DNA of 64,000 nt from Patescibacteria group bacterium (GCA_018823045.1 JAHJIX010000002.1:64846-128845); one strand, 5' to 3'. Counted from the first letter of the stretch, positions 11,834-63,555 are shown. Numbers and translations: made by a program. Notes: generated from the letters alone by a model not told the origin.

Positions 11834-12895
11834 ATGCTTCGTAAAACAAGTTTTCAAAAAATGCGCTCCATTTTCTTTTTTTCCTTACTTATCCTGTTGG
11901 GGGTACTTTCTCTTGTTATCATGCAACCATTTGCCTACCCAATTTTTTGGGCAGCAGTTATTGCGATTATGTTTCACCCTGTGTACAAATGGATTGATAA
12001 ACACATTAAACTCCCAGGCATTAGCTCTTCTATTACCGTTATTATTGTTGTGCTTGTCATATTCCTTCCACTAGTCCTCTTATCTGCATTACTTATTCGT
12101 CAATCGACAGACATTTACCAACAAGTCACAGCAGGTGACCTTACTCTTACGATAGAGCATGTTATGACACAATTATCAGAAAGTAAACTTGCGCCACTCT
12201 TTACTTTTTTTCAAAATGATTGGGCAAACTATGCAACAGAAGGAGCAAAACAAATTTCTTTGTTTATCTTTAATAATCTCAAAGTCATTACCCAAAATTC
12301 TTTCATGTTTCTCTTTCTCTCAGCAGCCATGCTCTATACCTTGTATTTTTTCTTAAAAGATGGAGAAAAAGTCTTACAAAAAATCATGTATTACTCCCCT
12401 CTTGGAAATGAATATGAACACATGCTCTACGAAAGATTTACATCAACATCCAGAGCTACACTAAAAAGCACCCTCATTCTAGGTGGTATACAAGGAACAC
12501 TTGGAGGACTACTTTTTTTAGTCACCGGAGTTGAAGGAGCCTTCATCTGGGGGGTTATCATGACCGTCCTTTCTGTTATCCCGGCACTTGGCTCTGTCAT
12601 TGTATGGCTCCCAGCAGGTATCATTATGCTTGCACTCGGCAATACTGCAGAAGGTCTGATTATTTTACTCTTTGGCTCAATTGTTATTAGCAATATCGAC
12701 AATGTCCTTCGTCCAATCATGGTCGGAAAAGATACACAACTACATCCACTCCTTGTACTCTTTTCAACCTTAGGAGGAATTTTCTTCTTTGGTGTTTCTG
12801 GATTTATTATCGGACCAATTGTTGTCTCTCTTTTCCTTGCAATCCTATCAATTTACGATCACCACTACGCAAAAGATCTTAAAAAGAATGTGTAA
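11834..12895 (+). CDS. putative AI-2E family (PerM/UPF0118-like) membrane transporter
   Basis: 353 aa, about 8 TM helices, glycine-rich middle region. The architecture is typical of AI-2E permeases. Confidence 0.45.
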   Translation: MLRKTSFQKMRSIFFFSLLILLGVLSLVIMQPFAYPIFWAAVIAIMFHPVYKWIDKHIKLPGISSSITVIIVVLVIFLPLVLLSALLIRQSTDIYQQVTAGDLTLTIEHVMTQLSESKLAPLFTFFQNDWANYATEGAKQISLFIFNNLKVITQNSFMFLFLSAAMLYTLYFFLKDGEKVLQKIMYYSPLGNEYEHMLYERFTSTSRATLKSTLILGGIQGTLGGLLFLVTGVEGAFIWGVIMTVLSVIPALGSVIVWLPAGIIMLALGNTAEGLIILLFGSIVISNIDNVLRPIMVGKDTQLHPLLVLFSTLGGIFFFGVSGFIIGPIVVSLFLAILSIYDHHYAKDLKKNV

Positions 12896-12901
12896 AATAA
12901 A

Positions 12902-12941
12902 AAAGTATCGGATAGCTCATGTTTTACTACTATCCGATATT
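12902..12941. repeat. hairpin repeat copy 1 (AAAGTATCGGATAG-loop-CTATCCGATATT)
   Basis: 10-11 bp perfect stem TATCGGATAG/CTATCCGATA. A near-identical unit recurs at 13942..13981. Also acts as a terminator-like structure after the AI-2E gene. Confidence 0.6.
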
Positions 12942-12977
12942 TTAAAGTAACGATAAACAAAAAGAGATGATGTATTA

Positions 12978-13961
12978 TCATCTCTTTTTACTTTTTTGAT
13001 CAATATATTTTTCCACAGCCTCTTTTGTACTTAACCAATTTCTTTCCTTTTTTATGGCATGTAATATTCCTTTTCTGGCAAGTAAACTTAAATATTCTTG
13101 TGAATAAGGAACCATCTTACTTAATTCACTTAATGTTATATATTCATTTTTCATATAAGCCGTCTTTGGATCAACATGTTCTACAGCCTCTAAATATAAA
13201 CCAAGAGAACGATCTATTGCCTGTGCCACAAATAATACAAACGGCGCTAAATCTCCCTTATTTGCTTTGTTTAATACATCATAATATTTTTTTCTATCTT
13301 GTTTTAAAATTATTGCTGGTGGATACCCCATCTGCATTAAAATTAAATTCATAAAAAGTCGAGCTGTACGTCCATTTCCATCTACAAAAGGATGAATAGC
13401 CACTAACTTATAATGTGCCAAAGCAGAAAACTCTATAACACTCATGTTATTTTTTGATGTATTTAACCACTCAAAATACTCACTCATTAGTTTGGGTACC
13501 GAAATTGGATTTGGAAGTACAATATTTGCACCAAGTATTCTTACTCTGTGAATTCTATACCTCCCGGCAAACTCATCTTCTATATCTGAAAGAATAATAC
13601 CATGCAATGCCAATAATTGTTTTTCTGAAAACATTGCCTTTTTTAATACAAATTTTTCAAGTAATTCAATTGCTTTTTTATGATTTGTCGTCTCAATATG
13701 CTCTCTCAAAGTTTTTCCTTTCACGGTAATTCCTTCACGTAAAACAAGAGCTGTTTCTTTTAATGTTAACGTATTTCCCTCTATAGCATTGGAATTATAT
13801 GTCCATTCTATAATAAATTGCTCACGTAATTTACGTAAAATATCTTTTTGTAAGGGTCGAAAACTATCTAAATTCTTTTTTTTTTCTTCTATCCTGTTTA
13901 ATATTTTTTGATCTAATAACATATAATAAATGATTTTTTTTAAAGTATCGGATAGGGCCAT
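12978..13961 (-). CDS. Fic family protein (class II Fic with N-terminal inhibitory SxxxEG motif and C-terminal wHTH-like tail)
   Basis: Canonical Fic motif HPFVDGNGRTAR. Upstream inhibitory-helix motif SNAIEGN. Confidence 0.85.
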   Translation of the reverse strand: MALSDTLKKIIYYMLLDQKILNRIEEKKKNLDSFRPLQKDILRKLREQFIIEWTYNSNAIEGNTLTLKETALVLREGITVKGKTLREHIETTNHKKAIELLEKFVLKKAMFSEKQLLALHGIILSDIEDEFAGRYRIHRVRILGANIVLPNPISVPKLMSEYFEWLNTSKNNMSVIEFSALAHYKLVAIHPFVDGNGRTARLFMNLILMQMGYPPAIILKQDRKKYYDVLNKANKGDLAPFVLFVAQAIDRSLGLYLEAVEHVDPKTAYMKNEYITLSELSKMVPYSQEYLSLLARKGILHAIKKERNWLSTKEAVEKYIDQKSKKR

Positions 13962-13981
13962 TATAGCACCTATCCGATATT
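13942..13981. repeat. hairpin repeat copy 2, overlapping the Fic start codon
   Basis: GTATCGGATAGG-loop-CCTATCCGATAT. The Fic ATG (13959..13961) lies in the loop. Confidence 0.6.
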
Positions 13982-14181
13982 AAGTAAAGTATTTATAACA
14001 ATATAGAGTACATACACAAATTATTACAACAAAAAAGGCGACTTTAGGTCGTCTTTTTCATAACATTGCTAAACTCACGGCTTGCCACGAGATGGCGCTA
14101 CTGTTTTTATACTTAACTACGTAAAATCCACCATTCAGTCAAATTACATAGTATGTCATATATGGCTTGCGCCATTTTACG

Positions 14182-14268
14182 TGGTGCCGCGGGCGGGATT
14201 TGAACCCGCGCGGTATTTCTACCAAGGGATTTTAAGTCCCTCGTGTCTACCAACTCCACCACCGCGGC
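14182..14268 (-). tRNA. tRNA-Leu (anticodon UAA), type II with long variable arm, CCA encoded
   Basis: Manual fold: acceptor GCCGCGG/CCGCGGC, anticodon loop CUUAAAA, variable-arm stem GGTA/TACC, T-loop TTCAAAT. Confidence 0.8.
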
Positions 14269-14423
14269 GTATATCTACTAAATTACGGAGATAATATATC
14301 ATATACACAAAATAAAATCAAGTGCATATATATACAATACAACACCAATACGCACATGAAAAAAAACAAATATGGAATAGTAAAGTGCTGTTCTCACGTA
14401 TATGAGAGCAGCACTTTTTTGTG

Positions 14424-14675
14424 TCAATATACATGAATAAGCCACCCGTAAATACGTAATTTCAATACTGCTTCTAATATGTTTAATCGTTTCACAGGAT
14501 GACCAACCCAAAAATTTTTTTTATACTCTGGGATATCAATACAACTATAAAAAGACAAATACCCATGAAAGACATATGGGTCACACACAGTACAACCATA
14601 ATATGTTAAATATTCAATAAGCTGATCAATACAAGGCTGTTCCATGTATGGATATCGGTAAATGAAAATATCCAT
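14424..14675 (-). CDS. small hypothetical protein (83 aa), paralog A of a tandem pair
   Basis: Strong RBS AAGGAGGTG 7 nt upstream of the ATG. About 45% identity to the ORF at 14862..15113 (shared MDIF.Y, YL.YY.C, GYL.F, DIP, IL.L.LRI.GW.I.VY). Confidence 0.6.
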   Translation of the reverse strand: MDIFIYRYPYMEQPCIDQLIEYLTYYGCTVCDPYVFHGYLSFYSCIDIPEYKKNFWVGHPVKRLNILEAVLKLRIYGWLIHVY

Positions 14676-14761
14676 GTACACCTCCTTTCTATTACCGTAG
14701 CATATTTTACTAGATTTGACAAAATATCTCTTTTTTCTCTTTAGTATTTTCAATCACTTAT

Positions 14762-14820
14762 TTTTACCAATCCAACGTCCCCCCAACCTGATACTCCGTT
14801 ACTCTCGTCTCAAAAAAATC
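14762..14820. repeat. direct repeat: duplicated copy of the nrdB 3' end (last 13 codons plus stop plus downstream)
   Basis: About 60 bp near-identical to 17937..17996. Reverse-translates to RVTEYQVGGTLDW*. Confidence 0.75.
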
Positions 14821-14861
14821 ATACAGTGCTGGATTCTCATGTGGAATCCAGCACTTTTTGC

Positions 14862-15113
14862 TTAATATACATAAATACGCCACCCTTGAATTCGTAATTG
14901 TAAAATAATCTCTAATATTGTTACTCGTATTGCTCCACTTTTCCCCAGATACATTGAATGATGTACGGGAATATCCACTGGAACATGAAATGTTAAATAG
15001 CCCTCAAAAATATCAGGATTTAACACATCGCAATTATAATATTTCAAATATTGAATCAAGACCCTCCTATACTGTTTTGATGTGTATCCATGCACATAGA
15101 CAAATATATCCAT
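14862..15113 (-). CDS. small hypothetical protein (83 aa), paralog B
   Basis: RBS AAGGAGGTG. Paralogous to 14424..14675. Confidence 0.6.
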   Translation of the reverse strand: MDIFVYVHGYTSKQYRRVLIQYLKYYNCDVLNPDIFEGYLTFHVPVDIPVHHSMYLGKSGAIRVTILEIILQLRIQGWRIYVY

Positions 15114-15354
15114 GCAGCACCTCCTTTTTATTACCGTATCATATTATATGATTTTCCCCAAATATTCTATTGACAAATTTCAATATATGTGATTAACTAC
15201 GCTGTTGTCCTATTATCTATACTATTGAATCTATTTTACACTGTAGAATATACTCAATAGTGTAGATGCCCATAACAGGGCTCTACGCTTTTCTTTGCTG
15301 AGGTCACATGACCTTAGCATGGTTTCTTTAAGCACATCACGATGGAGGAAAATC

Positions 15355-16050
15355 GTGAAATACGCCTTTGCCATCTTTTTGATGGCTCTCAACATTGGAT
15401 ATGCTCAGGCGCAACAGCCAACGAGCATACCCAAAGACAATCCTGAGCTTCTAGATAAGCTCATGAACATCCACAATGAATTGCTTAATCAACCCCCCAT
15501 TGGGAACAATTATGTTCCTCAAGACTTCCCGTCGCCGTTTTGTCGGCAATTCCATAGGATGTTCATGTCCTACATGGAGACCCGAACAAGCAAACTGCCA
15601 CAGGAGACCCAACTCCGTAACCGCGCGATGGGAGCGCGACGGATCCCTGCACCATTCACGGTCCCAGCAGATATATGGGAGCAATACATTGAGTGCCTTC
15701 CATATAAGAGCGCCCCACTTAAAATCAAGAATACCAAAATGGCAGGAGAAGGATCTAAAGAAAATAAACTTAGAATCCACCTCCGTGCACAACAAGTAGA
15801 AATAGTAAAAACTTTCCGCCATGTTCTTGATGATGCCTGGAGCTATCCAGAAATCAAATACCCCTCTGAAGAATGCAGAAATGTGATAATCCTACTCAGG
15901 ACAAACGCAAAATTGACTGCATATATAGCAGAGAACTTAGAGTCAAAAGTCACTTCTGACCCAAGAAAAATCCCACCATTACCACTGACACTATTGTCTC
16001 CGAAACAATGGGAAGTGTATATTAGCTGTCTGCCCCAAATTAAGCAGTAG
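15355..16050 (+). CDS. secreted hypothetical protein with two W-E-x-Y-I-x-C-L-P motifs
   Basis: GTG start preceded by GGAGG. Signal peptide VKYAFAIFLMALNIGYAQA. GC content clearly above the genome background. The ORF track extends the frame back to 15295. Confidence 0.5.
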   Translation: MKYAFAIFLMALNIGYAQAQQPTSIPKDNPELLDKLMNIHNELLNQPPIGNNYVPQDFPSPFCRQFHRMFMSYMETRTSKLPQETQLRNRAMGARRIPAPFTVPADIWEQYIECLPYKSAPLKIKNTKMAGEGSKENKLRIHLRAQQVEIVKTFRHVLDDAWSYPEIKYPSEECRNVIILLRTNAKLTAYIAENLESKVTSDPRKIPPLPLTLLSPKQWEVYISCLPQIKQ

Positions 16051-16109
16051 CAATCCCCTCCTAAATAGCCCACCACGACAAACCCTCCAAAAGAAACCGC
16101 GCCCACCCA

Positions 16110-16137
16110 GAGCAACGCCCCGCGTTGCTCTTTTCAA
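16110..16137 (+). terminator. rho-independent terminator
   Basis: GAGCAACGC-ccc-GCGTTGCTC perfect 9-bp stem followed by TTTTCAATTTT. Confidence 0.7.
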
Positions 16138-16190
16138 TTTTAAAATTTGGCTTAATCTAGCAAAATATTAAATATTAGTGGGTAGGGGGC

Positions 16191-16219
16191 TTGACAAAAT
16201 GGTCAAAACGTGCTATAAT
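16191..16219 (+). promoter_or_regulatory. perfect sigma70 consensus promoter (TTGACA-17 nt-TATAAT)
   Basis: ttgacaaaatggtcaaaacgtgctataat read directly from the sequence. Confidence 0.7.
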
Positions 16220-16365
16220 GAATCGTTTTTTAAAATAAAGAGATATGCACATTGCTGCATCTGTACTGAAAAAGACAATACAGATGCAGTAGCGTGGATT
16301 CCATGCTCGACAACTGGGGCAACTTTGCCCCCACCAATTCCCCATTATGGGGAAGGAGAAAAGGT

Positions 16366-16803
16366 ATGCGTTTCATCGCTATCCTCATCCTCACCGCCAT
16401 CATCCCCGCCATCGCCGCCATCGCCGCGCCCGCCACCCCCGTCCTCGCCGCGCCCGCCACCCCCGTGGCGCCCGCGCCCGCCACCCCCGTGGTGGTCACG
16501 ACCGAGAAGGAGGTCAACTTCATCACCCCGATGAACCTGTCCCGCCGCTCGGTTATGGAAGAGAGGCAGCACTGTCACAAGGTGCTGACCTCACTCACCG
16601 CCCTCGAACGGGCTGAAAAGCACGGAGCCAGGGCCTACACCTTGGCCCGTGCCAAGACCCGAAAGGCCCTCTGCCCCGAGAGGAAGAGGGAGTGCATTGA
16701 GGAGCACCAATTGATCCTCACCCGCAAGTGGTATCCCCACTGGGACCACACGGCACCAATCAAGGATTGGTGCCAGAAGGTGCTGAGGATCAACCGGGGA
16801 TAA
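16366..16803 (+). CDS. small secreted protein with PATPV repeats and a C-terminal 4-Cys domain, in a strongly GC-rich segment
   Basis: RBS AAGGAG 8 nt upstream. Signal peptide MRFIAILILTAIIPAIAAIAA, then (A)PATPV x3. About 60-65% GC versus about 35% background. Alternative overlapping frames on both strands appear to be GC artefacts. Confidence 0.55.
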   Translation: MRFIAILILTAIIPAIAAIAAPATPVLAAPATPVAPAPATPVVVTTEKEVNFITPMNLSRRSVMEERQHCHKVLTSLTALERAEKHGARAYTLARAKTRKALCPERKRECIEEHQLILTRKWYPHWDHTAPIKDWCQKVLRINRG

Positions 16804-16921
16804 GTACTGCTCATTTGCGGTACCTTTCCCCACACACCCGGCGAGCGAATGCCTGAAAAACTTTCGCTCGCCCACTTTACTATCATTTTAAACTTCATTA
16901 AAGTGACAGAAGAGTCGCAAC

Positions 16922-16956
16922 AAAAAACATCCCGACTAAGTCGGGATGTTTTTTTG
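16922..16956. terminator. bidirectional terminator
   Basis: CATCCCGAC-taa-GTCGGGATG flanked by A6 and T7 runs. Confidence 0.7.
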
Positions 16957-16964
16957 TACGATTA

Positions 16965-17897
16965 TTATTCACTATCAATCAGCGCGTACCCTTCAATCAC
17001 AGCATCAAGAAAAAATTCTTCAAGTGCTAAATAATCTCCTTTTATTTGCGCCTTTTTTAAATATTCATAATATTTCCTTTTCTTTTCTTGACGAATAATC
17101 GCTGGAGGAAAATCGGCTTCAAGCAACATACCAACCATCAATAAACGACCAATTCTGCCATTTCCATCTGAAAAAGGATGGATCTTTTCAAAATCAGCGT
17201 GAAAACGAGGAATAAATGACAAAATATCTTTTTTCTTTTCCTTAAACAAACCCTTTATTAATTCTGGAACTTTCAAATAATTTGCTGTTACCACCCCAGA
17301 ACCAACAATCCTTACACCATGATTTCGATAACACCCTGCATTATCGAGTATACTATTCATAAGAATTTGATGTAATGACAACATTGTTTTTTCATTTATT
17401 TTTTCCTTTTTACTCACATGTTCAAATACCCTCAAAAAAGCAGCCTGATGATTTTTGGCTTCCATGTGCTCACGCATACTTTTGTTTTTCACCGTTACTC
17501 CATCAAACAAAATTTGAGCAGTATCCTTTACTGTCAGTGTTGACCCTTCAATACTATTACTATTGTATGTCAAAGATAAAACAAATTCATCAAATAAATC
17601 TTTTCTCTTCTTGAGTAATGGGACTATTCCCTTATGCTGTTTTTGCTTTTCCAAAACAATATTTCTTTTCTCTTCTAAAAGATTTTTTCCACTTTTCTTG
17701 ACTCCTGTATATTTTGTATACAATTCATTAATAATTTTTTTATTTGATTCTCTTGGCTCTTTTTTGCGATAAAGCCAATTATTAAGAGTAACAAAAGATA
17801 CTCCAAGCTCACGCGCAAGTGATTCTTGAGTTTTATTAAAATTTTTGAGAAGAATTGTTAATTTTTTATCATAACTCATATATTCAAAGCATATCAA
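16965..17897 (-). CDS. HTH-Fic protein (N-terminal XRE-type HTH plus Fic domain)
   Basis: Fic motif HPFSDGNGRIGR. Inhibitory motif SNSIEGS. N-terminal LARELGVSFVTLNNWL helix-turn-helix. Confidence 0.85.
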   Translation of the reverse strand: MICFEYMSYDKKLTILLKNFNKTQESLARELGVSFVTLNNWLYRKKEPRESNKKIINELYTKYTGVKKSGKNLLEEKRNIVLEKQKQHKGIVPLLKKRKDLFDEFVLSLTYNSNSIEGSTLTVKDTAQILFDGVTVKNKSMREHMEAKNHQAAFLRVFEHVSKKEKINEKTMLSLHQILMNSILDNAGCYRNHGVRIVGSGVVTANYLKVPELIKGLFKEKKKDILSFIPRFHADFEKIHPFSDGNGRIGRLLMVGMLLEADFPPAIIRQEKKRKYYEYLKKAQIKGDYLALEEFFLDAVIEGYALIDSE

Positions 17898-17940
17898 AGT
17901 TTATAAACTTTGTCAATAGAGCAGCAGTTTATAAACTTTT
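17893..17940. promoter_or_regulatory. two palindromic operator-like sites upstream of HTH-Fic
   Basis: CAAAGTTTATAAACTTTG (18-bp perfect palindrome) and AGTTTATAAACT 16 nt apart, lying between the fic start and the nrdB stop. Confidence 0.45.
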
Positions 17941-17996
17941 ACCAATCCAACGTCCCCCCAACCTGATACTCCGTTACTCTTGTTTCAAAGAAATTC
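17937..17996. repeat. direct repeat copy at the authentic nrdB 3' end
   Basis: Matches 14762..14820. Confidence 0.75.
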
Positions 17997-18973
17997 TTTT
18001 CTTTATTTAAATCAATAGCTTCACTCATCCATGGGAATGGATTTGATACCCCAAACTGTTCCGGGAGACCAACACGAGTTAAACGACGATCAGCAATATA
18101 CTCAATATATTGTTTAAATCCTTCTGCATTCATGCCAAAAATTCCTTTTGGAAATACTGTTTGTGCAAAGGTATATTCTAAGCGAGTCCCCTCTTTTACC
18201 AAATCAACAATATGTTGTTGAAACTCAGGAGTCCACAATTCTGGTTGTTCTTCTTTAATAGAATTAATTATATTGATACCAAAATTCAGATGTTGTGACT
18301 CATCGCGCATAATATACTGAATTTGCTCAGCTGACCCAATCATTTTATTTTGACGCTGAAAACCAAACATAACAGCAAAAGCAGAATAGAAAAATATTCC
18401 TTCTAAGATAAGCGCAAAGACAGCAATATTTTCTAAAAACTTTTGGTCAGCTTCAAAAGTACCTGTTTTGAAATTTGGATCAAAGATTCCTTCATTAAAA
18501 CTCAAGATAAAAGAAGCTTTTTCGTAAATTGCATCTACTTCTCTATACATATTGTAAATTTCACCCTCATCGAGCCCTAAACTTTCTACAATATATTGGT
18601 ATGCATGTGTGTGAATTGCCTCTTCATAGCCTTGGCGCAACATATACATACGACACTCTGGAGAGGTTACGTGTTTATATGAAGCAAGTACAATATTGTT
18701 CGCTGCAATAGAATCAGCAGTAGTAAAAAACCCTAGTACGGTTTTAAATGCCTTTCGTTCATCTGCTGTCAGTACTGAGTCAGATTTCCACTGCTCAATA
18801 TCATTTTGCATGGTAATCTCTGTTGGCAACCAATGATTTGCATTCCCAGCAAGATACGCTTCCCACGCAAATTTATGTTTCATAGGAGACAATTGCATGA
18901 CATCAGCATCTGCTCCATTAATAATACGCCGCTGATTGATATCAACTCGTTTTTCTGTTTTTGTGATAGGCAT
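17939..18973 (-). CDS. nrdB: ribonucleoside-diphosphate reductase beta subunit (class Ia R2)
   Basis: Di-iron ligand motifs EEAIHTHAY and RDESQHL. SNPFPWM. About 340 aa. Confidence 0.9.
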   Translation of the reverse strand: MPITKTEKRVDINQRRIINGADADVMQLSPMKHKFAWEAYLAGNANHWLPTEITMQNDIEQWKSDSVLTADERKAFKTVLGFFTTADSIAANNIVLASYKHVTSPECRMYMLRQGYEEAIHTHAYQYIVESLGLDEGEIYNMYREVDAIYEKASFILSFNEGIFDPNFKTGTFEADQKFLENIAVFALILEGIFFYSAFAVMFGFQRQNKMIGSAEQIQYIMRDESQHLNFGINIINSIKEEQPELWTPEFQQHIVDLVKEGTRLEYTFAQTVFPKGIFGMNAEGFKQYIEYIADRRLTRVGLPEQFGVSNPFPWMSEAIDLNKEKNFFETRVTEYQVGGTLDW

Positions 18974-29093: not shown

Positions 29094-29609
29094 TTACGGA
29101 AGATAGTAGGTTCGCTCATTAAGTGGATCTGTATTATCTCTATACTGGCGCTGTTCTCGATCTACTTCATCATATAAATCTCTTTCTGCATCCATATATT
29201 CACTTTGATCTCTATTGATATCATCCTCCACTAATATATTTATAACAAATGTCGTAATAGCATATGATGTTAAAATAATGACAATCCCCATTATACCACG
29301 TACCATTGTTTTTTTTCCTATTTCAATCTTTCCTTCATCTCCAGCAGCAGTCATAATCATAAATCCAGCATAAATGGTGTAAGCAAAAAATACCGTCCCG
29401 ACAAGCCCTAGGCTCGTACGGACAAGTAATGCAATTATAACACGAGGATCAGTCGCTTCACCCAAATTACCTCCATCTTTACCAGCGGTAGCCTCTAGTT
29501 GTTCTTGTAGCTCTTCCGTATATGTCGGTCCCTGCGCAACGACCTGCATTGGTTGAAACATTATTCCCAAACAAAGAATCGCAAATACACCAAACAAGAA
29601 AAAACGCAT
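29094..29609 (-). CDS. TrbC/VirB2-like pilin-family paralog A (core plus acidic C-terminal tail)
   Basis: Signal peptide; core YAGFMIMTAAGDEGK...IMGIVIILTSYAITTFV. Confidence 0.5.
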   Translation of the reverse strand: MRFFLFGVFAILCLGIMFQPMQVVAQGPTYTEELQEQLEATAGKDGGNLGEATDPRVIIALLVRTSLGLVGTVFFAYTIYAGFMIMTAAGDEGKIEIGKKTMVRGIMGIVIILTSYAITTFVINILVEDDINRDQSEYMDAERDLYDEVDREQRQYRDNTDPLNERTYYLP

Positions 29610-29613
29610 ATAA

Positions 29614-30087
29614 TTAATTTTTATATTTTAACTGACAATTAAAGTCTCCATTTCGAACCATACTCCAAAGTCCACAATCTACTTGCATATCTGTTGTTCG
29701 GTATACTTTCCCTGCAATATTGCTACTGAGTGATCGTGCAACAAATGTGGTAATGCTGTATGCCACCATAATAACAAATAATCCAATAATAGCTCGTTTT
29801 ATTGTGTCTCGTGCTTTCGATACTTTTTCTTCATTATCTCGTGCAGTGAGCAACCAATATCCAGACATAAGAACAAGTACAAAAAATATTGTGCCAATAA
29901 ATCCAAGCATCAAACGAATAAGCTCTGCAACAAATAATTGTGGTGGCACAGGAACTCCCATACCAGCAGCTCCCGCCGCAGCGCTAATTTGCTCATTTAT
30001 TTGACCAACCAATCCTTGTGCTGAAACAGTTGCTGTGATAAACAAACCCGCAAGAAGACTAAAGAAAAAAAATCGTTTCATAAACAT
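29614..30087 (-). CDS. pilin-like paralog B (core plus short 2-Cys C-terminal tail)
   Basis: Signal peptide; core SGYWLLTARDNEEK...IIGLFVIMVAYSITTFV. Confidence 0.5.
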   Translation of the reverse strand: MFMKRFFFFSLLAGLFITATVSAQGLVGQINEQISAAAGAAGMGVPVPPQLFVAELIRLMLGFIGTIFFVLVLMSGYWLLTARDNEEKVSKARDTIKRAIIGLFVIMVAYSITTFVARSLSSNIAGKVYRTTDMQVDCGLWSMVRNGDFNCQLKYKN

Positions 30088-30100
30088 AATTAAATAGATT

Positions 30101-30508
30101 TTACGGATTCAACTGAGGTGTCTGTGACGCATTAGACGATGCTGCGCTACGAGCAACAATTTTTGGCACGACAAATGCTGTAATGCTGTACGCACCCACG
30201 GTGATAATTAAACCAATAATTGCAGCTTTAATGATATCCATCGCTTTGTCTACTTTTCCTTCATCTCCTCGTGCTGTCATCCACAAATATCCTGCATAGA
30301 CCATCAACACAAGAAAGATAGTCCCCACGAAAGAAAGAAGCAAACGAATCATATATCCAACATTTTCAGCCAAAGAAATATCATTCACATTTTCATACCC
30401 TGCTTTTTCTGCCGTATCAGCTACCAGTCCAGCTCCTAGATCAATTGCATAAACAGGTAGTGCGACAAAACAGCAAAATAATGCAAGAAACACAAATATT
30501 TTTTTCAT
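30101..30508 (-). CDS. pilin-like paralog C (core only)
   Basis: YAGYLWMTARGDEGKVDKA...IIGLIITVGAYSITAFV. Confidence 0.5.
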   Translation of the reverse strand: MKKIFVFLALFCCFVALPVYAIDLGAGLVADTAEKAGYENVNDISLAENVGYMIRLLLSFVGTIFLVLMVYAGYLWMTARGDEGKVDKAMDIIKAAIIGLIITVGAYSITAFVVPKIVARSAASSNASQTPQLNP

Positions 30509-30529
30509 ACAGTTACATATAAATATTAT

Positions 30530-30898
30530 TTATTGAGGTAAAAATCGAAACAACACAAACGCATTAATTGCGTAGGCACTCATAATAATAATTAACCCAA
30601 TAATTGATGTTTTAATAATTTCCATTGCTTTTTCTACTTGCCCCTCATCTCCTCTTGCTGTCATCCATAAATATCCGGCATAGATCATCAGCACCAAAAA
30701 TATTAACCCAACCATGCTTAAAGCTAGATTAATAAATGTTCCAACCACGTTTGCCACATTTTCTTCTGCAACACCAGCTGTACCACCAGTTGTCTTTACT
30801 TTGTTTACGGCATCACCCAGTGTTGCAGTATACACTGTAGAAAATAACAAAAAGAAAGAAAAAAAACTTACAATGGCAATGCTGAATATTTTTTTCAT
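30530..30898 (-). CDS. pilin-like paralog D (core only)
   Basis: YAGYLWMTARGDEGQVEKA...IIGLIIIMSAYAINAFV. Confidence 0.5.
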   Translation of the reverse strand: MKKIFSIAIVSFFSFFLLFSTVYTATLGDAVNKVKTTGGTAGVAEENVANVVGTFINLALSMVGLIFLVLMIYAGYLWMTARGDEGQVEKAMEIIKTSIIGLIIIMSAYAINAFVLFRFLPQ

Positions 30899-30933
30899 AT
30901 ACGTATATTTAAAAAACTAGATAACACACAATA

Positions 30934-31542
30934 TTATTCTGTTGGTCCTTTTGCACAAAGTGCCTCACACTCTGGATAAGTTTTAATACCCCCATTCCAT
31001 CCCCATTCAGTATATGGATCTACGGCAGTTATTGTTTCTCCTATTAATTGACAACGCTCATAGGAATCCATACGAGCAGCCCAACTCGTTGCATATTGTC
31101 CTGTTCTATCACAGCAACAGCCCACAGGTGCACCATCAATTTGCCCTGCACTACTACCAGATGTTCCTTGTACACCAGCAACTAAACGACCAAGCACCAA
31201 ATCAACAACACCATATGATGCAATAATAACAAGCATGCCAATCGTTGCTGCAATAATAGTTTCACGTGCTTTTTCTGCTTTTCCTTCATCTCCTCTTGCA
31301 GTAATCCAACGAAAACCTGCATAAAACATGAGACCAAAAAATACCAGACCTACTAAAGTCAAAGCCCATTTAATAATTTTTCCTGTTTCTGTTTCAATAT
31401 TTGTTTGTGGAATGCCGGTTCTGCCTGATAATACTTTTACATTTGTAAATGCGTCACCAATGTCTTGTGCAGATACATCAAAAAACCAAAAAGAACCAAT
31501 ACTAATGGCAATAAGAGTTCCGTATATTGCTATTTTTTTCAT
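30934..31542 (-). CDS. pilin-like paralog E (core plus C-terminal Cys-rich ectodomain with a CCC motif)
   Basis: YAGFRWITARGDEGKAEKA...TIGMLVIIASYGV. C-terminal segment has 7 Cys. Confidence 0.5.
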   Translation of the reverse strand: MKKIAIYGTLIAISIGSFWFFDVSAQDIGDAFTNVKVLSGRTGIPQTNIETETGKIIKWALTLVGLVFFGLMFYAGFRWITARGDEGKAEKARETIIAATIGMLVIIASYGVVDLVLGRLVAGVQGTSGSSAGQIDGAPVGCCCDRTGQYATSWAARMDSYERCQLIGETITAVDPYTEWGWNGGIKTYPECEALCAKGPTE

Positions 31543-31549
31543 AGTTTTC

Positions 31550-31882
31550 TTATACTAATCCACTAAATACAAAGACAGTAATTGCATATGACGCAAGCAC
31601 AATAGCCATCCCGATAATTGCCGCGATAATAGTATCTTTTCCTTTTTCTACTTGCCCTTCATCTCCTCGTGCAGTCATCCACAAAAATCCTCCGTACACC
31701 ATAAGGATAAAAAAAAGAATCCCTATGATAGACAAAATACTTCCGACGATGCCACCGGCAAGAAGTTCAACTGTTTTACTATTTTTTAATCCTGTGCCAC
31801 CAGCTGTTTCGTTTAGTCCATACTGTGCATACACAGTAGCTGGAATAAGAAAAAAACTAAAGACACTTATAATATATTTCAT
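31550..31882 (-). CDS. pilin-like paralog F (minimal core, 110 aa)
   Basis: YGGFLWMTARGDEGQVEKG...IIGMAIVLASYAITVFV. Confidence 0.5.
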   Translation of the reverse strand: MKYIISVFSFFLIPATVYAQYGLNETAGGTGLKNSKTVELLAGGIVGSILSIIGILFFILMVYGGFLWMTARGDEGQVEKGKDTIIAAIIGMAIVLASYAITVFVFSGLV

Positions 31883-31908
31883 ATAGCTTAAACTGTATTT
31901 AAAAACTA

Positions 31909-32490
31909 CTATTCTATACCTGCATCACAACACACTATTTCATTTCCACCAGGACACAACCCTATATAACATTCATTTCCTGGAGTACAATTCTTTATTC
32001 TTTCGACTTCTGTGTCTCCAAAAACAAATGTACAATTTGCAATATTTTGACAGGCATATTTTTCATTTTGAGCAACACATTTGGCATCAGCAGCTACTGT
32101 TGGCCCCCCCGTATTATTTGTCACACTCTCAAAAATAAACTGCGTTATGGCATAAGAACTCAGCACAATGACAAGCCCAATCACGGCCGAAATGATAGTT
32201 TCTTTTCCTTTGGTGATACGTCCTTCGTCTCCTCTTGCGGTCATCCAAAGAAATCCACCATAGAGCATCAGGCCAAAAAATAATATACCCACAAAAGAAA
32301 GAGCGCCACCAATAACATCACCCACAAGTACACGAGCATCTGTGGTCTTTTTTAATTGTGTTTTTCCGACAGTTTCTCCTAAACCATAATCTTTGGGAAT
32401 AGTAATTGCTGACACAACAATAACAGACGTAAACAGTACAATAGCTGCTACTATACTTCCACATAATAAAGCAAAGTACTTTTTACGCAT
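31909..32490 (-). CDS. pilin-like paralog G (core plus C-terminal Cys-rich ectodomain ending GLCPGGNEIVCCD)
   Basis: Core identical in parts to paralog H, with about 150 bp of near-identical DNA. Confidence 0.5.
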   Translation of the reverse strand: MRKKYFALLCGSIVAAIVLFTSVIVVSAITIPKDYGLGETVGKTQLKKTTDARVLVGDVIGGALSFVGILFFGLMLYGGFLWMTARGDEGRITKGKETIISAVIGLVIVLSSYAITQFIFESVTNNTGGPTVAADAKCVAQNEKYACQNIANCTFVFGDTEVERIKNCTPGNECYIGLCPGGNEIVCCDAGIE

Positions 32491-32517
32491 ATAAAACGCA
32501 ATTATACATAGTATTAT

Positions 32518-33090
32518 TTAATCACAACACACTATTTCATTTCCACCAGAACACAACCCCCTTTGACACTGCCAATCAAATTGACCACAAGCATTTAAAA
32601 ACTCACTTATAGGAAGAGTTGGATCACTCATTTCTGCTCCTAGCGTAGAACATTGTTTAATATTTTTACAACTCCAACCAGGATTTACCTGTTCACAAGT
32701 TGCGGTAGGTCCCTCCTGTTGCTGATTGCCAGAAACACTCTCAAAAATGAACTGAGTAATAGCATAAGAACTGAGCACAATGACAAGCCCAATCACGGCC
32801 GAAATGATAGTATCTTTTCCTTTTGTGACATGTCCTTCGTCTCCTCTTGCGGTCATCCAAAGAAAACCACCATAGAGCATCAGGCCAAAAAACAATACAC
32901 CCATAAAAGATAAGGCGCCACCAACAACATCACCAACAAGTATACGCACGTCTGTTGATTTGTTTAATTTTGCTGTACTTGCAGCTTCACCTAAACCATA
33001 ATCAGCAGCTGAAACGATGAGGACAGACGTAAACAATACAATAGCGACTGCTACACTTCCGAGTAAGAGCTGAGAGTACTGTTTACGCAT
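32518..33090 (-). CDS. pilin-like paralog H (core plus C-terminal Cys-rich ectodomain ending GLCSGGNEIVCCD)
   Basis: YGGFLWMTARGDEGHVTKG...VIGLVIVLSSYAITQFI. Confidence 0.5.
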   Translation of the reverse strand: MRKQYSQLLLGSVAVAIVLFTSVLIVSAADYGLGEAASTAKLNKSTDVRILVGDVVGGALSFMGVLFFGLMLYGGFLWMTARGDEGHVTKGKDTIISAVIGLVIVLSSYAITQFIFESVSGNQQQEGPTATCEQVNPGWSCKNIKQCSTLGAEMSDPTLPISEFLNACGQFDWQCQRGLCSGGNEIVCCD

Positions 33091-33107
33091 ATAAGCAATA
33101 GTTATAA

Positions 33108-33521
33108 TTATGATTGTGGTGGATTAACGATAACATAATCATCTGCACCTGTTGAAGCTTTGTATAACTCTTTAATAACAAATGTACTAATTGAGTACGC
33201 GGTAAGAATAATCACTAACCCAACTACAGCTGCCGAAAGAATTCCTTTTGCAGTACCAATTTGATCTTCTTTCCCTGCAGCTGTCATCCATAAAAATCCA
33301 GCATAGATAACAAGAACTAACATGATTGTTCCTAAAATTCCAAGCCCTGCATTAATAATCTTTGCAACAGTAATACGTACGTCTGTATTTGTTAATCCAC
33401 TTTGACCAGCATACCCAACCCCAAGCAAATCATCATCTGCTGCTTGTGCAAGTGCAGGTGCTGCAGTAAATAAACCAAATGCGAGAACCAAGCCCAATAG
33501 GGCGCTTAACATGTATTTCAT
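33108..33521 (-). CDS. pilin-like paralog I (core)
   Basis: YAGFLWMTAAGKEDQ...VVGLVIILTAYSISTFV. Confidence 0.5.
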   Translation of the reverse strand: MKYMLSALLGLVLAFGLFTAAPALAQAADDDLLGVGYAGQSGLTNTDVRITVAKIINAGLGILGTIMLVLVIYAGFLWMTAAGKEDQIGTAKGILSAAVVGLVIILTAYSISTFVIKELYKASTGADDYVIVNPPQS

Positions 33522-33636
33522 ATGTGTAAATAAAATATAATATAATTATGAATACGCGTTGACAGTGAGAGCCTACGCCTACTCATAATGATAAGATCTG
33601 GGAAGAACTAATTTCTCCCCAGATACATAATCATAA

Positions 33637-34095
33637 TTAGATTTCGTAATCTGCGCCTGTCACACCAGTTTTTACTGCTAAATTTACAAGTACAAAACGA
33701 GCAATTGCCCATGCACTCATAATAATAGCCAAACCGATAACACCAGCAAAAATTAATTTTCTTGCTTCAGCTGTTTTTTCTTCACTTCCACCTGCTGTCA
33801 TCCATTTGAAACCACCAGCAAGTACGATTACAACAGCAATAATACCAAGTAAGCTTAACGCTACATTGATAATACTTGCTACAGTCTCTGGCAAACTATT
33901 TTTACCGAGAGCTAGAGTACTATTATCAATTCTATCGATTCCAATAGGGTCAGTTTCACTACCACTAACAGCTCCTCCTGCTGGAGGTTGTGCTTGTGCG
34001 CTCGCAATTACTGGGGCAAGCACCACTGTTAATACAATCGCAACGATTATACCAAAAGCTTTGTTATATTTTCGTAATAAATTCACATGTCTCAC
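33637..34095 (-). CDS. pilin-like paralog J (core)
   Basis: AGGFKWMTAGGSEEKTAEA...VIGLAIIMSAWAIARFV. Confidence 0.5.
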   Translation of the reverse strand: MRHVNLLRKYNKAFGIIVAIVLTVVLAPVIASAQAQPPAGGAVSGSETDPIGIDRIDNSTLALGKNSLPETVASIINVALSLLGIIAVVIVLAGGFKWMTAGGSEEKTAEARKLIFAGVIGLAIIMSAWAIARFVLVNLAVKTGVTGADYEI

Positions 34096-34792: not shown

Positions 34793-35758
34793 TTACTTAA
34801 TGACTCGAAAATCAGAAGCAACACCCAAAGCATCTAACAGGGTATCTACTAATAAATAAGCACCCAGAGCAATAATAATACCAACAACAGCTGCAATTAA
34901 AATTTGCTGCCCTTGTTTAAACTTTTCTGCATTGCCAAAAGAGGTGATCATCACTACACCGCCATACATAAACATGAGAAATGCAACAGTACCAATAATT
35001 GATAGTAATAATTGAGCGGCATTAATACCCAGTAATAGCAAATCATTAATATCTCGACACCCTCCATAAGTAAATGCACAATCTGGAATAACGCCGTCAT
35101 AACCAGCCGGTTTTGATCTTGTTGGGTCAACAGCATCTCCTGTATTAGTAAAAGCAGCAGATCCTTTGCCTATACAATTTTGATATTCAGGTTCACAAAC
35201 ATTTTTCATCTGTAATTTTTCTCCAGCTGTTAAAGGATACGGAATTCCTTTTTTATCTCCATCATCAATCAGTGCCCAAATTTCTGCACATTTTGGCTGC
35301 TTTATTTTAACTGCATCATAACAAGCAAGACTTTCTTTTTTTTCTTGCGCTGCATTAGCTTGTGCTTGTTGAGGAGTCATTGTAGGTGTACAACGCACTT
35401 CATATCCTGCCGTAACTACTCCAGCTGCCTTTACAGTTATAATCCAATCATTCGATAATTGAACACGATACCCAACACCAGCAACAGTACCATTACTTGG
35501 TGTAGATTTTAGTGCTATAGATAAAGCCTGCCCCATATTTCTATCAACACTGACAATCTTTTCTATATCTACTCCTGTATCTGCTAAAGGTATTGAAACA
35601 CAAACATTCTTTGTTACATTATAACCCTGTGTTTTTTTTATGCACTCTATCATTTTTTCGCCACTATTTGGCGGTGCACCACAAGCAGCAAAAACACTCT
35701 CAGGCACTACAAGCCCTACCATCAATACAGCAAATAAACATATTAAATATTTTTTCAT
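34793..35758 (-). CDS. pilin-like paralog L (large N-terminal Cys-rich ectodomain plus C-terminal core)
   Basis: Likely start MKKYLICLFAVLMVG (signal peptide). C-terminal core YGGVVMITSFGNAEK...VVGIIIALGAYLLV. The ORF track extends to 35791. Confidence 0.5.
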   Translation of the reverse strand: MKKYLICLFAVLMVGLVVPESVFAACGAPPNSGEKMIECIKKTQGYNVTKNVCVSIPLADTGVDIEKIVSVDRNMGQALSIALKSTPSNGTVAGVGYRVQLSNDWIITVKAAGVVTAGYEVRCTPTMTPQQAQANAAQEKKESLACYDAVKIKQPKCAEIWALIDDGDKKGIPYPLTAGEKLQMKNVCEPEYQNCIGKGSAAFTNTGDAVDPTRSKPAGYDGVIPDCAFTYGGCRDINDLLLLGINAAQLLLSIIGTVAFLMFMYGGVVMITSFGNAEKFKQGQQILIAAVVGIIIALGAYLLVDTLLDALGVASDFRVIK

Positions 35759-35759
35759 A

Positions 35760-37133
35760 TTACATGCTTTGTTGAATGCGGGCAGCCGCACTATTAATTA
35801 ATGTTTCATCTCGCTCTTGCTGATCAATATCAAGTGGGACAGGTCGTCTATATGCATCAATAAGTTCACGAAGTGCCTCATCTGCTTTTGCACTATCTCG
35901 TCCATAATACCAGTTTGTTGCAGTCAAAATTTGAGAAACAAATGGTGCAATTAACGGATCTTCTGCTTGATCTGCTAACTGACTTCTAAGCGGTGAAGGT
36001 AAACCAACAGCTGTTGTATATGATTTGATATTATTTGGTGTTGAAATAAAACGCACAAAATCCCATGCAATATCTTGATGTTTTGATTTAGCCACGACTG
36101 ACTCAACCCAATAATTTGCAACATTTATGGCTTCCTTCCCCTGTAGTTGTGGCACTGGCACAATACTTAGATTCATTTGTGGTGCTTTTGCTTTTATGCG
36201 GGCTTTGTCATATGCAAATCCAAAGTAAAAGACACTTTGCTGATTGGCAAAGACATCAAGTGCAGTATCAAAATTATCATTCCAAGTATATACATCTCGA
36301 GTAGAGCGAGCAAAATCAGTATAAAAACGCAAAGCCTGAAGTGTTGGGTGTGTTTCTCTTAAACGCTTAATATCTTGCGCAAAAGTCACATAACCAGGTT
36401 GTGTAATATTGACTTCATTTTGAAGCATTAAGAGCGCCAAAATATCTGTTGCATTATCTATATTATATGCTGTCCCCATAGAAGCACCTGCTTGCAAAAT
36501 AGTACCATTAATATCTTTCTTGGTTGTTTTTACAATCGTCTCCATAAACTCATCCCACGTTGTTGGGGGCACAGCAACTCCTGCACGATCAAGCAAATCT
36601 GTATTGTAATACAGCGCAAGCGTATCTACAGCAAGCGGCAAACCATATATTTGATTGTCAATAACAACGTCTCCTGCAACAGTACCCACAAAACTTGTTT
36701 TTAATGTATTGACCGTAGGCAATGCATGTGTTTCAAAATTGACCACCTGCTCCTGTGCATATTTTCCTTCAATCGTCATACGCGCCATCTGTACCTGTGC
36801 TGGCATCGGAGATAATCGTGGCTGATATGTTCGCACTGCACGATTATGCACAGAAATAATATCTGGGGCGATATCATCAGCTAGTGCGTTTACAAACAAA
36901 TCATCAAATTCTTCATAACGTACTTGACGGATATTAACTGTCACATGTGGATAGCGTGCATTATATTCTGCAGCAAAAGCACGTAATTGTGCTACATTAT
37001 TAAAAACGGTCCAATAATTAATCGTTACTGGTCGAACAGCAATACGCTCTGCGTCAGTTAGGCCCTTACACCCAACACCCGTACTCAACAAGACTATTGG
37101 AATAAGGAAAAATGTCATGAATTTTTTAAACAT
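35760..37133 (-). CDS. ABC transporter substrate-binding protein (sugar-binding, MalE-like family 1), orphan
   Basis: Lipoprotein-like signal ending GVGC. YGLPLAVDTLALYYNTDLL and WDEF motifs. No permease or ATPase genes adjacent. Confidence 0.6.
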   Translation of the reverse strand: MFKKFMTFFLIPIVLLSTGVGCKGLTDAERIAVRPVTINYWTVFNNVAQLRAFAAEYNARYPHVTVNIRQVRYEEFDDLFVNALADDIAPDIISVHNRAVRTYQPRLSPMPAQVQMARMTIEGKYAQEQVVNFETHALPTVNTLKTSFVGTVAGDVVIDNQIYGLPLAVDTLALYYNTDLLDRAGVAVPPTTWDEFMETIVKTTKKDINGTILQAGASMGTAYNIDNATDILALLMLQNEVNITQPGYVTFAQDIKRLRETHPTLQALRFYTDFARSTRDVYTWNDNFDTALDVFANQQSVFYFGFAYDKARIKAKAPQMNLSIVPVPQLQGKEAINVANYWVESVVAKSKHQDIAWDFVRFISTPNNIKSYTTAVGLPSPLRSQLADQAEDPLIAPFVSQILTATNWYYGRDSAKADEALRELIDAYRRPVPLDIDQQERDETLINSAAARIQQSM

Positions 37134-37167
37134 ATATGCTGATTACATTAAAAAGTTCATCTAAATA

Positions 37168-62380: not shown

Positions 62381-63352
62381 ATGTCTCTTGATTCATATAT
62401 CACTCAATTTTTAGAATATTTAGAAATTGAAAGAAACCGCTCACAAAAAACAATACAAAATTATTATTTTTACCTCCACCGATTTTTAGATTGGCACGGA
62501 AGCAAAAAAAAGCCATCCTCTATTAGTGCTGATAGTATTCGCGCCTATCGATTATGGCTCAACCGCCTGATTGACGCGCACGGAGAACCGCTCAAAAAAA
62601 ACACACAAAATTATCATCTTATTGCCTTACGCTCATTTTTAAAATACCTGGCAAAACAAGATGTTCCTACTCTTGCACCAGAAAAAATTGAACTCATGAA
62701 GATGCCCGATCGTGAAGTATCTTTTTTAGCAGGTGACGACCTTGAACGACTACTTGAAGCTCCACTACTCATTTGTTCAGCAAAAAAATTACTTGACCCA
62801 AATACAAAAAAAGGATCAAAAGCACTTATAGTATTACGAGATAAGTCATTTTTAGAATTATTATTTTCAACAGGATTACGTGTTTCTGAAATTGTACATA
62901 TCAAAAAAGAAGAATTAAACCTAACACAAGACGAATTTACCGTACTTGGTAAAGGAGGAAAACGTCGTATTGTCTTTTTGTCTGAACGAGCACGCTTCTG
63001 GATTGAACAATACCTACACAGTCGATCAGATATGAATCCCTATATATTTATTTCTCATGATAAGCGTACTGGAAAACAAGAAGACGAATTTACCCCGATC
63101 ACCCCAAGAACAGCGCAAAGACTCATTCAAAAATATGCAAAAATTGCAGGTATAACAAAACCTATTACACCGCATACCATTCGACACTCATATGCAACTG
63201 ATTTACTCCGCAATGGGGCCGATATCCGCAGCGTACAAGCTATGCTTGGTCACTCATCAATCACTACTACACAAATTTATACCCACATTACCGACAAAGA
63301 ACTTCGGGGGGTACATAAAAAATTTCATGGTAAAAAACGCAAAAATGATTGA
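62381..63352 (+). CDS. tyrosine recombinase (XerC/XerD family)
   Basis: R..HxxR..Y catalytic residues: GLRVSEI, HTIRHSYAT, LGHSSITTTQIYTHI. Confidence 0.8.
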   Translation: MSLDSYITQFLEYLEIERNRSQKTIQNYYFYLHRFLDWHGSKKKPSSISADSIRAYRLWLNRLIDAHGEPLKKNTQNYHLIALRSFLKYLAKQDVPTLAPEKIELMKMPDREVSFLAGDDLERLLEAPLLICSAKKLLDPNTKKGSKALIVLRDKSFLELLFSTGLRVSEIVHIKKEELNLTQDEFTVLGKGGKRRIVFLSERARFWIEQYLHSRSDMNPYIFISHDKRTGKQEDEFTPITPRTAQRLIQKYAKIAGITKPITPHTIRHSYATDLLRNGADIRSVQAMLGHSSITTTQIYTHITDKELRGVHKKFHGKKRKND

Positions 63353-63391
63353 CAAATCCGCTATTTTTAGATACTATAGCAGAGTATTGAA

Positions 63392-63463
63392 GCTCCTGTA
63401 GTTCAATGGATAGAACACCAGCCTTCTAAGCTGGCTATGTAGGTTCGATTCCTACCAGGGGTA
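63392..63463 (+). tRNA. tRNA-Arg (anticodon UCU)
   Basis: D-arm GTTCAATGGATAGAAC. Anticodon loop CUUCUAA. Two G.U wobble pairs in the acceptor stem. No CCA encoded. Followed by a hairpin terminator at 63468..63495. Confidence 0.7.
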
Positions 63464-63555
63464 CGATAAAAACGGCTTTAGCCGTTTTTATTTTTCCTCT
63501 ATCAGTCTTGTCTAAAACATGCTACACTATATATAAAAATAAACAAATCTATTAT

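Follow-up and report, generated by a model that had tools for sequence, protein, structure and literature searches.

A repeated nrdB 3' end and its reliability

The 3' end of nrdB, the gene for the small subunit of ribonucleotide reductase, occurs twice in a stretch of 64,000 nucleotides from a Patescibacteria group bacterium (GCA_018823045.1, JAHJIX010000002.1:64846-128845). This whole stretch is referred to here as the window, and all positions are counted from its first letter. It is a segment of 37% GC of Magasanikbacteria-like character, in which the two copies of the nrdB end enclose a block of 3.1 kb. Read along the minus strand, the order of features is nrdA, nrdB, the Fic2 promoter, Fic2, a convergent hairpin, gc169 and sec251 (both encoded on the opposite strand), parB, the stranded nrdB fragment nrdB', parA, tRNA-Leu(taa), Fic1 and, opposite in strand, perM. 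We regard the arrangement as the real scar of one recombination event, situated in a hotspot of accessory and defence genes; it adds a new instance to known kinds of event in a little-studied phylum. The repeat looks more like a scar left when two versions of a variable gene neighbourhood recombined through homology than like the pair of attachment (att) sites of a self-mobile island.

Copy 2 of the repeat (17937..17994, minus strand) is the authentic nrdB 3' end plus 2 nt. It overlaps the nrdB open reading frame (ORF; 17939..18973, minus strand), whose 344-aa product matches Pfam PF00268 (Ribonuc_red_sm, 6.5e-87), terminates in TRVTEYQVGGTLDW and is 80-91% identical to Patescibacteria nrdB proteins. 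Copy 1, or nrdB' (14762..14819, minus strand), consists of the last 18 nrdB codons, the stop codon and 2 nt; no nrdB sequence lies upstream of it, where the parB terminator hairpin is found instead. A preliminary description of the locus had recognised the duplicated end and had taken copy 2 for the true gene end and copy 1 for a stranded fragment, which is what the alignment of the copies bears out: they form a direct repeat of 58 nt with 55/58 identical positions, the first 44 nt being free of mismatches, and the homology ends 2 nt beyond the nrdB stop codon. The starts given there (14762 and 17937) are right, whereas the ends (14820 and 17996) lie 1-2 nt too far. In the window the 44-mer is present two times, whereas 100 shuffles give an expectation of none, and a dispersed repeat was rejected because the 64 kb hold no further copy. 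The intergenic regions of the window were also searched for a decayed third piece of nrdB, and none was found. Elements integrated at dif by the XerC/D of the host (IMEX) would have an att core like the host dif site, with two Xer-binding arms around a 6-8 nt spacer; no dyad symmetry is obvious to the eye in the 44-nt core.

The three mismatches between the copies (at 14806, 14809 and 14815) all fall within the 14 nt that adjoin the parB terminator, and all three are transitions at third codon positions, synonymous in the nrdB frame. Moreover, each of the variant codons (TTT, GAG and ACG) is common among 85 Patescibacteria nrdB genes. Because the differences are exclusively synonymous and each is a natural nrdB allele, copy 1 is best read as a former part of a working nrdB allele from another lineage and not as a randomly decaying duplicate. 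The same nrdB segment in L082, one of the closest metagenome contigs, differs at 5/59 positions, compared with 3/58 between the copies, and the latter divergence is within the range found between genus-level relatives for so conserved a segment.

The integrated arrangement is treated as real. In three NCBI metagenome-assembled genomes (MAGs), with contigs of 193-197 kb where a size is reported, the protein accessions run consecutively (MBU0661236-41, MBU1721231-36 and MBU1901056-61) and imply the order parA-parB-sec251-x-Fic2-nrdB, and two Logan assemblies from two sequencing runs independently confirm pieces of it. The Logan contigs, built at k=31, end on either side after exactly 30 nt of the identical core, as expected because a 44-nt exact repeat keeps k=31 graphs from phasing the copies. 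The same breaks would arise if a chromosome with nrdB joined to parA had been misthreaded through the 44-nt repeat with a separate 3.2-kb circle or a second strain, since short-k graphs do not distinguish the two threadings. However, the three MAG records agree in their consecutive gene order, reads of at least 100 nt span the 58-nt repeat and the three variant bases tell the copies apart, and an assembly artefact of this kind, or a co-existing circle, is given hardly any credence.

Genes and signals of the block and its flanks

The content of the block is as the preliminary description had it: one of two 83-aa paralogues, two genes of secreted type with elevated GC and an HTH-Fic gene all lie between the repeats, while tRNA-Leu (14182-14268) and the other Fic gene (12978-13961) lie just outside them. 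The HTH-Fic gene, Fic2 (16965..17879, minus strand), encodes an XRE-type helix-turn-helix (HTH) domain fused to a class II Fic domain (Pfam Fic 8.6e-17, HTH_3 2.8e-4), and its product matches the PADLOC models PDC-S04 (2.3e-43) and SoFic (3.4e-28). The active site reads HPFSDGNGRIGR in the Fic2 protein (residue 234) and HPFVDGNGRTAR in the Fic1 protein (190), and the inhibitory motif reads SNSIEG (107) and SNAIEG (57), respectively; both proteins carry the two motifs, HxFx(D/E)GNGRxxR and (S/T)xxxE(G/N), by which class II members of the Fic/DOC family, those with an N-terminal inhibitory helix, are recognised. The Fic2 promoter (TTGACA-17-TATGCT; 17888..17936, minus strand) begins right after the nrdB stop codon and its 2 following nucleotides. 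On either side of its -35 box are two GTTTATAAAC palindromes, at 17899-17908 and 17927-17936, which are probably autoregulatory operators bound by the XRE-type HTH of Fic2. An inverted repeat at 16910..16966, between the convergent gc169 and Fic2 genes, probably acts as a bidirectional terminator.

The two genes on the opposite strand are ORFans. gc169 (16366..16803, plus strand) has a hydrophobic N-terminus and a Pro/Ala-rich tandem repeat (16381-16500), with a GC content of 64% and a GC content at third codon positions (GC3) of 0.86. It is preceded by a perfect consensus sigma-70 promoter with a TG element (TTGACA-17-TATAAT; 16191..16219, plus strand), and no relatives were found in IMG/VR, JGI metagenomes or plasmids. 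By its composition gc169 is foreign and of high-GC source, and it seems to have been acquired recently from an organism of high GC content and then to have received a promoter of native style. sec251 (15319..16050, plus strand; terminator at 16109-16131) has a signal-peptide-like N-terminus (...ALNIGYAQA/QQ), a GC content of 44% and a GC3 of 0.46, and a search of 1.84 billion representative proteins returned only sec251 itself. Each of these genes has its own promoter and terminator, and both products are predicted to be secreted from their hydrophobic, signal-like N-termini. A phage or plasmid origin of the block was rejected on the grounds that no phage DNA matches it, that gc169 is without plasmid, IMG/VR or JGI match and that sec251 is without homologues. 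Apart from tRNAs, an Rfam scan yielded nothing.

Native GC3 values range from 0.23 to 0.27, and those of Fic2 and parB (0.23-0.26) are native-like; the GC contents of the four genes across the block are 31%, 64%, 44% and 32%. Because gc169 and sec251 have foreign GC3 values while Fic2 and parB resemble native genes, the block is, judged by composition, a mosaic. Functionally, it would amount to fixed cargo: a self-regulated HTH-Fic protein similar to the Fic proteins that act as single-gene phage defences, a pair of secreted ORFans and one small protein without known family.

This last protein is the product of parB (83 aa, no family assigned; 14862..15113, minus strand), which is followed by a terminator hairpin (14825..14855, minus strand). 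The T-run of this hairpin, at 14813-14819, extends into the distal edge of copy 1. The parB paralogue parA (14424..14675, minus strand), also of 83 aa, lies just outside the repeat and has a promoter region at 14679-14732 and a terminator at 14382-14417. The two genes are thus placed on opposite sides of copy 1; their products share 43% amino-acid identity, and their promoters and terminators are alike. The 83-aa protein matches no family in Pfam, PHROGs, NCBIfam or PADLOC, and its AlphaFold model, with a predicted local distance difference test (pLDDT) score of 54, was not good enough to search for similar folds. No other member of the par family was found in 5.8 billion proteins or in any of the fetched loci, which leaves parA and parB as its sole members, in this organism only.

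On the far side of parA is tRNA-Leu(taa) (14182..14268, minus strand), a conserved landmark, and between it and perM lies Fic1 (12978..13961, minus strand), the second class II Fic gene (Pfam Fic 1.2e-22), with a weak C-terminal match to HTH_17. Against the PADLOC SoFic and PDC-S04 models, Fic1 and Fic2 together score between 1e-28 and 1e-43. Fic1 is bracketed by a hairpin of the form TATCGGATAG-N14-CTATCCGATA, at 12906-12939 and 13946-13979, with identical stems and unrelated loops; these are its only two copies in the window, with none expected by chance. The first copy serves as the perM terminator and the second holds the Fic1 -10 element TATAAT in its loop. This hairpin could be an operator for the C-terminal HTH of Fic1, or a duplication that arose when a Fic1 cassette was inserted between tRNA-Leu and perM.

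The nrdB-perM interval in relatives

The locus was compared with 80 GTDB nrdB loci, in which nrdB is 80-85% identical at the amino-acid level and which are mostly labelled Magasanikbacteria or Parcubacteria (some are apparently mislabelled MAGs), and with the closest metagenome contigs, including L082 and L085, in each of which nrdB is 91% identical to that of the window. Related Magasanikbacteria share the flanking synteny tkt-ArsC-DUF1294-bPH_2-ruvB / nrdA-nrdB ... tRNA-Leu-perM-membrane protein-GspE-ThrRS. What lies between nrdB and perM varies from one examined relative to the next, usually reading nrdB-(x)-uppS-tRNA-Leu-perM, and tRNA-Leu abuts perM in the relatives, where Fic1 intervenes in the window. 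To judge from these gene orders, the interval from nrdB to tRNA-Leu/perM is a hypervariable accessory hotspot in this clade of Patescibacteria. A second nrdB 3' end within 10 kb was found in 0/80 loci and in neither L082 nor L085.

The two closest contigs differ from each other in this interval. L085 has nrdB, a terminator and CBS, without a Fic gene. L082 has nrdB, a 300-nt spacer with a terminator, a Fic2 orthologue, orf93, uppS, CBS and tRNA-Leu, with a single nrdB end. The L082 Fic2 orthologue is 86% identical, lies downstream of nrdB and is not accompanied by a repeat, and the promoter and palindrome layout of the window is kept in front of it (L082 9945-9985). At the nucleotide level, the window and L082 are 82% identical in nrdB and 94.5% in tRNA-Leu; at four-fold sites Fic2 (0.54) and nrdB (0.50) have higher identities than ruvB, tkt and nrdA (0.36-0.41). 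Since the L082 orthologue adjoins nrdB and the four-fold-site identity of Fic2 is like that of nrdB, Fic2 has long stood beside nrdB in the clade and is not a recent import; this arrangement greatly predates the repeat, which has hardly decayed. Pairwise matrices group the window with L082 and L085 by nrdA as well as by nrdB, the nrdA branch of L082 being long. The idea that the window and L082 had recently exchanged an nrdB-Fic block by horizontal transfer was considered and dropped, as sliding identity and these matrices show a plain clade.

Two further candidates from this comparison were set aside. Repeats are not a general trait of HTH-Fic cassettes, since the homologues in L089, L090 and L092 are solitary and have no comparable repeats or integrases, and the HTH_17 matches found downstream of nrdB in other loci belong to an unrelated conserved protein.

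A separate observation concerns uppS, the gene for undecaprenyl-diphosphate synthase, which lies between nrdB and tRNA-Leu in all the relatives examined that retain synteny (L001, L035, L082 and the P0127 contig). Neither uppS nor CBS is present in the 64-kb window (the interval compared was 11834-18973). Because it is missing from the whole window, this essential gene has been moved or replaced in the window's lineage.

Neither an empty site nor an excised form of the block was found among the 80 GTDB loci and the closest metagenome contigs, collections that hold no relative with more than 91% nrdB identity. The core pattern, in both exact and degenerate form, is absent from JGI metagenomes and IMG/VR.

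Recombinases and the attachment-site model

The preliminary description had explained the arrangement as an island integrated site-specifically into the 3' end of nrdB, with the gene end restored by the element. Spelled out, this model has an attP that mimics the last 58 nt of nrdB, attL at 14762-14819 and attR at 17937-17994; the integrase has been lost, so that the block, like a cis-mobilizable element (CIME), could be moved only in trans. The repeat has the right topology for it, with the gene end restored, and the perfect 44-nt core is followed by mismatches clustered on the inner side of the island. The middle of the block is of foreign composition, the combination of a defence-like Fic gene with ORFans is cargo typical of islands, and CIMEs by definition retain attL and attR without integration genes (PMC5704250).

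No recombinase is encoded between the repeats (four ORFs searched against Pfam, PHROGs, NCBIfam and PADLOC), and the absence of an integrase from the block, already remarked on in the preliminary description, stands. The sole recombinase recognised in the window is XerC/D/A-like (62381..63352, plus strand) and lies 45 kb from the block, and a tblastn search of the window with this protein returned the self-match only. It is presumably a housekeeping enzyme. It scores 223.6 bits against the NCBIfam archaeal-type XerA model (cut-off 220 bits), falls under the XerC and XerD cut-offs and is located 40 nt upstream of tRNA-Arg(tct) (region 62381-63464). With the same protein as a tblastn query, no homologue adjoining nrdB was found in the 80 related loci. 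The only Xer-like match among the loci is in L009, from a related Magasanikbacterium, at 15008-15763, directly beside tRNA-Leu(taa) and at the usual place of perM. The position of this tyrosine recombinase suggests that tRNA-Leu, for its part, is a genuine integration site in the clade.

The lack of an integrase in the block, the distance of the Xer-like enzyme and the lack of a cognate element family, with 0/80 nrdB loci having a duplicated end and no nrdB-adjacent recombinase detected by the Xer query, all speak against an att pair at nrdB. Moreover, Fic2 is an old neighbour of nrdB with native composition, the only homologue of parB lies just outside attL, no third nrdB fragment exists that would point to tandem accretion, and the core pattern is missing from IMG/VR and JGI metagenomes. 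An att island would therefore leave unexplained why Fic2 is inside, why the parB homologue is outside and why there is neither a cognate integrase nor recurrent use of the site. Recurrent integration at nrdB, or accretion in tandem, was rejected in view of the missing second end in the loci and the missing third fragment in the window. Of the original proposal of site-specific integration into a gene's 3' end, the topology of a crossover in the nrdB 3' end is retained; no independent feature backs its attribution to attL/attR integration by a decayed island. For an empty site the proposal predicts that nrdB is joined to the flank at 14760, to which the variable interval of the relatives does not correspond, the collections holding no sister strain. 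A relative with the same arrangement and one copy, which would count against the proposal, is partly represented by L082, with Fic2 beside nrdB and a single nrdB end. Overall, we regard the island model as unlikely, though with a real chance of being correct.

A further possibility is a mobile cassette that dispenses with an integrase altogether. It would excise through the 44-58 bp nrdB-end repeats, spread among Patescibacteria by DNA uptake and re-insert by RecA-dependent Campbell recombination. The nrdB 3' end, exceptionally conserved and with few or no differences between genera, would serve it as a landing site in all of them. If true, such a cassette would let bacteria that have few mobile elements exchange genes for defence. 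There is no evidence for present mobility of the block, and the idea is considered improbable.

A proposed tandem joining of two divergent haplotypes

The position of parA and parB on either side of copy 1, with shared promoter and terminator architecture, would look like that of two alleles of one locus. One way of producing it is an intragenomic tandem duplication of a unit made up of the last 58 nt of nrdB and a par gene, after which Fic2, gc169 and sec251 would have entered the space separating nrdB from the par copy on the upstream side. The order nrdB...parB-nrdB'-parA is the one that such a duplication predicts, and the par copies do share flanking regulatory sequence. However, the par proteins are only 43% identical, as against 95% for the non-coding nrdB', in which 44/44 bases of the core are unchanged. 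This contradicts a duplication because a neutral fragment cannot outlast the par genes so well unless it is repeatedly gene-converted. The exclusively synonymous differences of nrdB' are also at odds with it, and Fic2, being old beside nrdB, is not a later insertion. The duplication is thus very doubtful.

Our favoured reading, held tentatively and at slightly less than an even chance of being right, is a tandem fusion of two haplotypes that had diverged in the hypervariable nrdB-tRNA-Leu-perM interval, by a crossover at a conserved anchor and a microhomology join. The location of a par homologue just outside the repeat is better accommodated by tandem-joined alleles than by a foreign element. 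One version of the interval would have been nrdB-Fic2-gc169-sec251-parB (V2) and the other nrdB-parA-tRNA-Leu (V1), both from related bacteria. At one end, a highly conserved anchor (nrdB or tRNA-Leu) would have allowed incoming DNA of a relative to recombine, and at the other end this DNA would have been joined illegitimately within the 7-8 nt T-run that follows the parB terminator, a process known as homology-facilitated illegitimate recombination. Equivalently, a fragment that had become circular could have crossed over once, in Campbell fashion, in the 44-nt identical core, with the same product. In either case, the last 58 nt of one lineage's nrdB would have been carried along and stranded between parB and parA. 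The incoming DNA may have been the 3.1-kb block or the 0.5-kb nrdB'-parA piece, one genome not deciding which side was the donor. The repeat, its exclusively synonymous differences, the missing recombinase, the long-standing nrdB-Fic synteny and the par genes on both sides are observations; the recombination pathway and the donor are the inferred parts of the model. For a homologous locus of a related genome as the source of the acquired DNA speak the par genes on both sides of the junction, the nrdB-Fic synteny of L082 and the purely synonymous differences, and the reading also draws on the genus-level divergence of the copies, the missing recombinase, the single nrdB end of all 80 related loci and the variable content of the interval.

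A conserved anchor is available on one side, in that nrdB and tRNA-Leu are 82% and 94.5% identical in nucleotide sequence to those of L082 and nrdB is 80-85% identical in amino-acid sequence across the 80 loci. On the other side, the distal edge of copy 1 falls in a T7 run that is common to the tail of the parB terminator and to the nrdB codons TTY-TTY: the T-run at the edge reads ATTTTTTT, and the corresponding stretch of nrdB genes reads AATTTCTTT or AATTTTTTT, giving up to 8 nt of microhomology. The T-run is compatible with the proposed microhomology junction, proof of which would need the parental sequences.

Several points weigh against the fusion of two haplotypes. The collections searched contain no sister strain with either parental haplotype. 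Homologous exchange on 44-58 bp is a rare event, as is an illegitimate join. A block of 44 identical nucleotides followed by clustered mismatches, with homology ending just past the stop codon, is typical of integrase att sites as well. A trans-acting integrase may be encoded elsewhere in the genome, of which 64 kb, from a contig of roughly 197 kb, were seen. Finally, the 43% identity of parA and parB demands either a fairly divergent donor or a very fast-evolving gene.

Other features of the window

Outside the interval considered here, the minus strand of the window encodes, at 29094-34095 and 34793-38166, ten or more small membrane proteins that are paralogues arranged in tandem and have the motif G(F/Y)LWMTARGDEG in common. 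In a scan of this array five members matched Pfam PF18895 (T4SS_pilin), four above the cut-off and one just below it, and two of the five are larger proteins with the domain at the C-terminus. On these matches, the array is a pilin gene family of unusual size. At 47653-47991 the window has an antitoxin gene of the Phd/YefM family (Pfam 1.4e-10).

Significance and comparison with known systems

Patescibacteria, also known as the candidate phyla radiation (CPR), have tiny genomes, and the ways in which they gain accessory and defence genes are poorly understood. To our knowledge, few mobile elements have been described in them. The locus presented here provides a concrete acquisition scar downstream of one of their most conserved genes, in a hotspot that holds two defence-like Fic genes, lineage-specific ORFans and a gene that clearly stems from a high-GC source. 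Should the reading anchored in homology be true, the conserved ends of housekeeping genes and tRNAs would be anchors for gene flow that needs no integrase; if the island model is true, nrdB would be a new attachment site and the block a CIME-like relic. On either reading this is a single instance of modest reach.

The nearest formal likeness is with islands, integrative and mobilizable elements (IMEs) and prophages that are integrated into gene 3' ends by tyrosine or serine recombinases. As in these, a direct repeat of the target's 3' end bounds the block and leaves the gene intact, a perfect core is accompanied by divergence on one side only, and the cargo is accessory and of defence type. 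Unlike them, the block has no recombinase gene, no empty site or circular form was found in the comparison, no use of nrdB as a target was seen in more than 80 related loci and Fic2 is an old chromosomal neighbour. CIMEs are defined as elements that have kept attL and attR and lack genes for integration and transfer (PMC5704250), and the block, with its repeats kept and no integrase, answers to this definition. However, CIMEs are recognised through cognate integrative and conjugative elements (ICEs) or IMEs at the same att site, none of which occurs at nrdB in the fetched loci, and the block is only 3.1 kb long, with no remnant of transfer or integration modules.

The Fic genes of the locus resemble the single-gene defence candidates SoFic and PDC-S04 of PADLOC, both in their model matches and in their catalytic and inhibitory motifs. 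They differ in that the score against the SoFic NCBIfam equivalog (33.7 bits) is far below its cut-off of 550 bits and that Fic2 carries an N-terminal XRE HTH; their role in defence is putative.

Homology-facilitated illegitimate recombination and the tandem duplications generated by transformation (merodiploids) are known from naturally transformable bacteria, e.g., Acinetobacter and Streptococcus pneumoniae. The former term occurs in PMC6382021 and PMC8116780. The model proposed here shares with this process a conserved anchor on one side, microhomology in a T-run on the other, independence from any recombinase and a related, syntenic donor. It differs in that the pathway is inferred from a single genome and that Patescibacteria are not among the demonstrated hosts.

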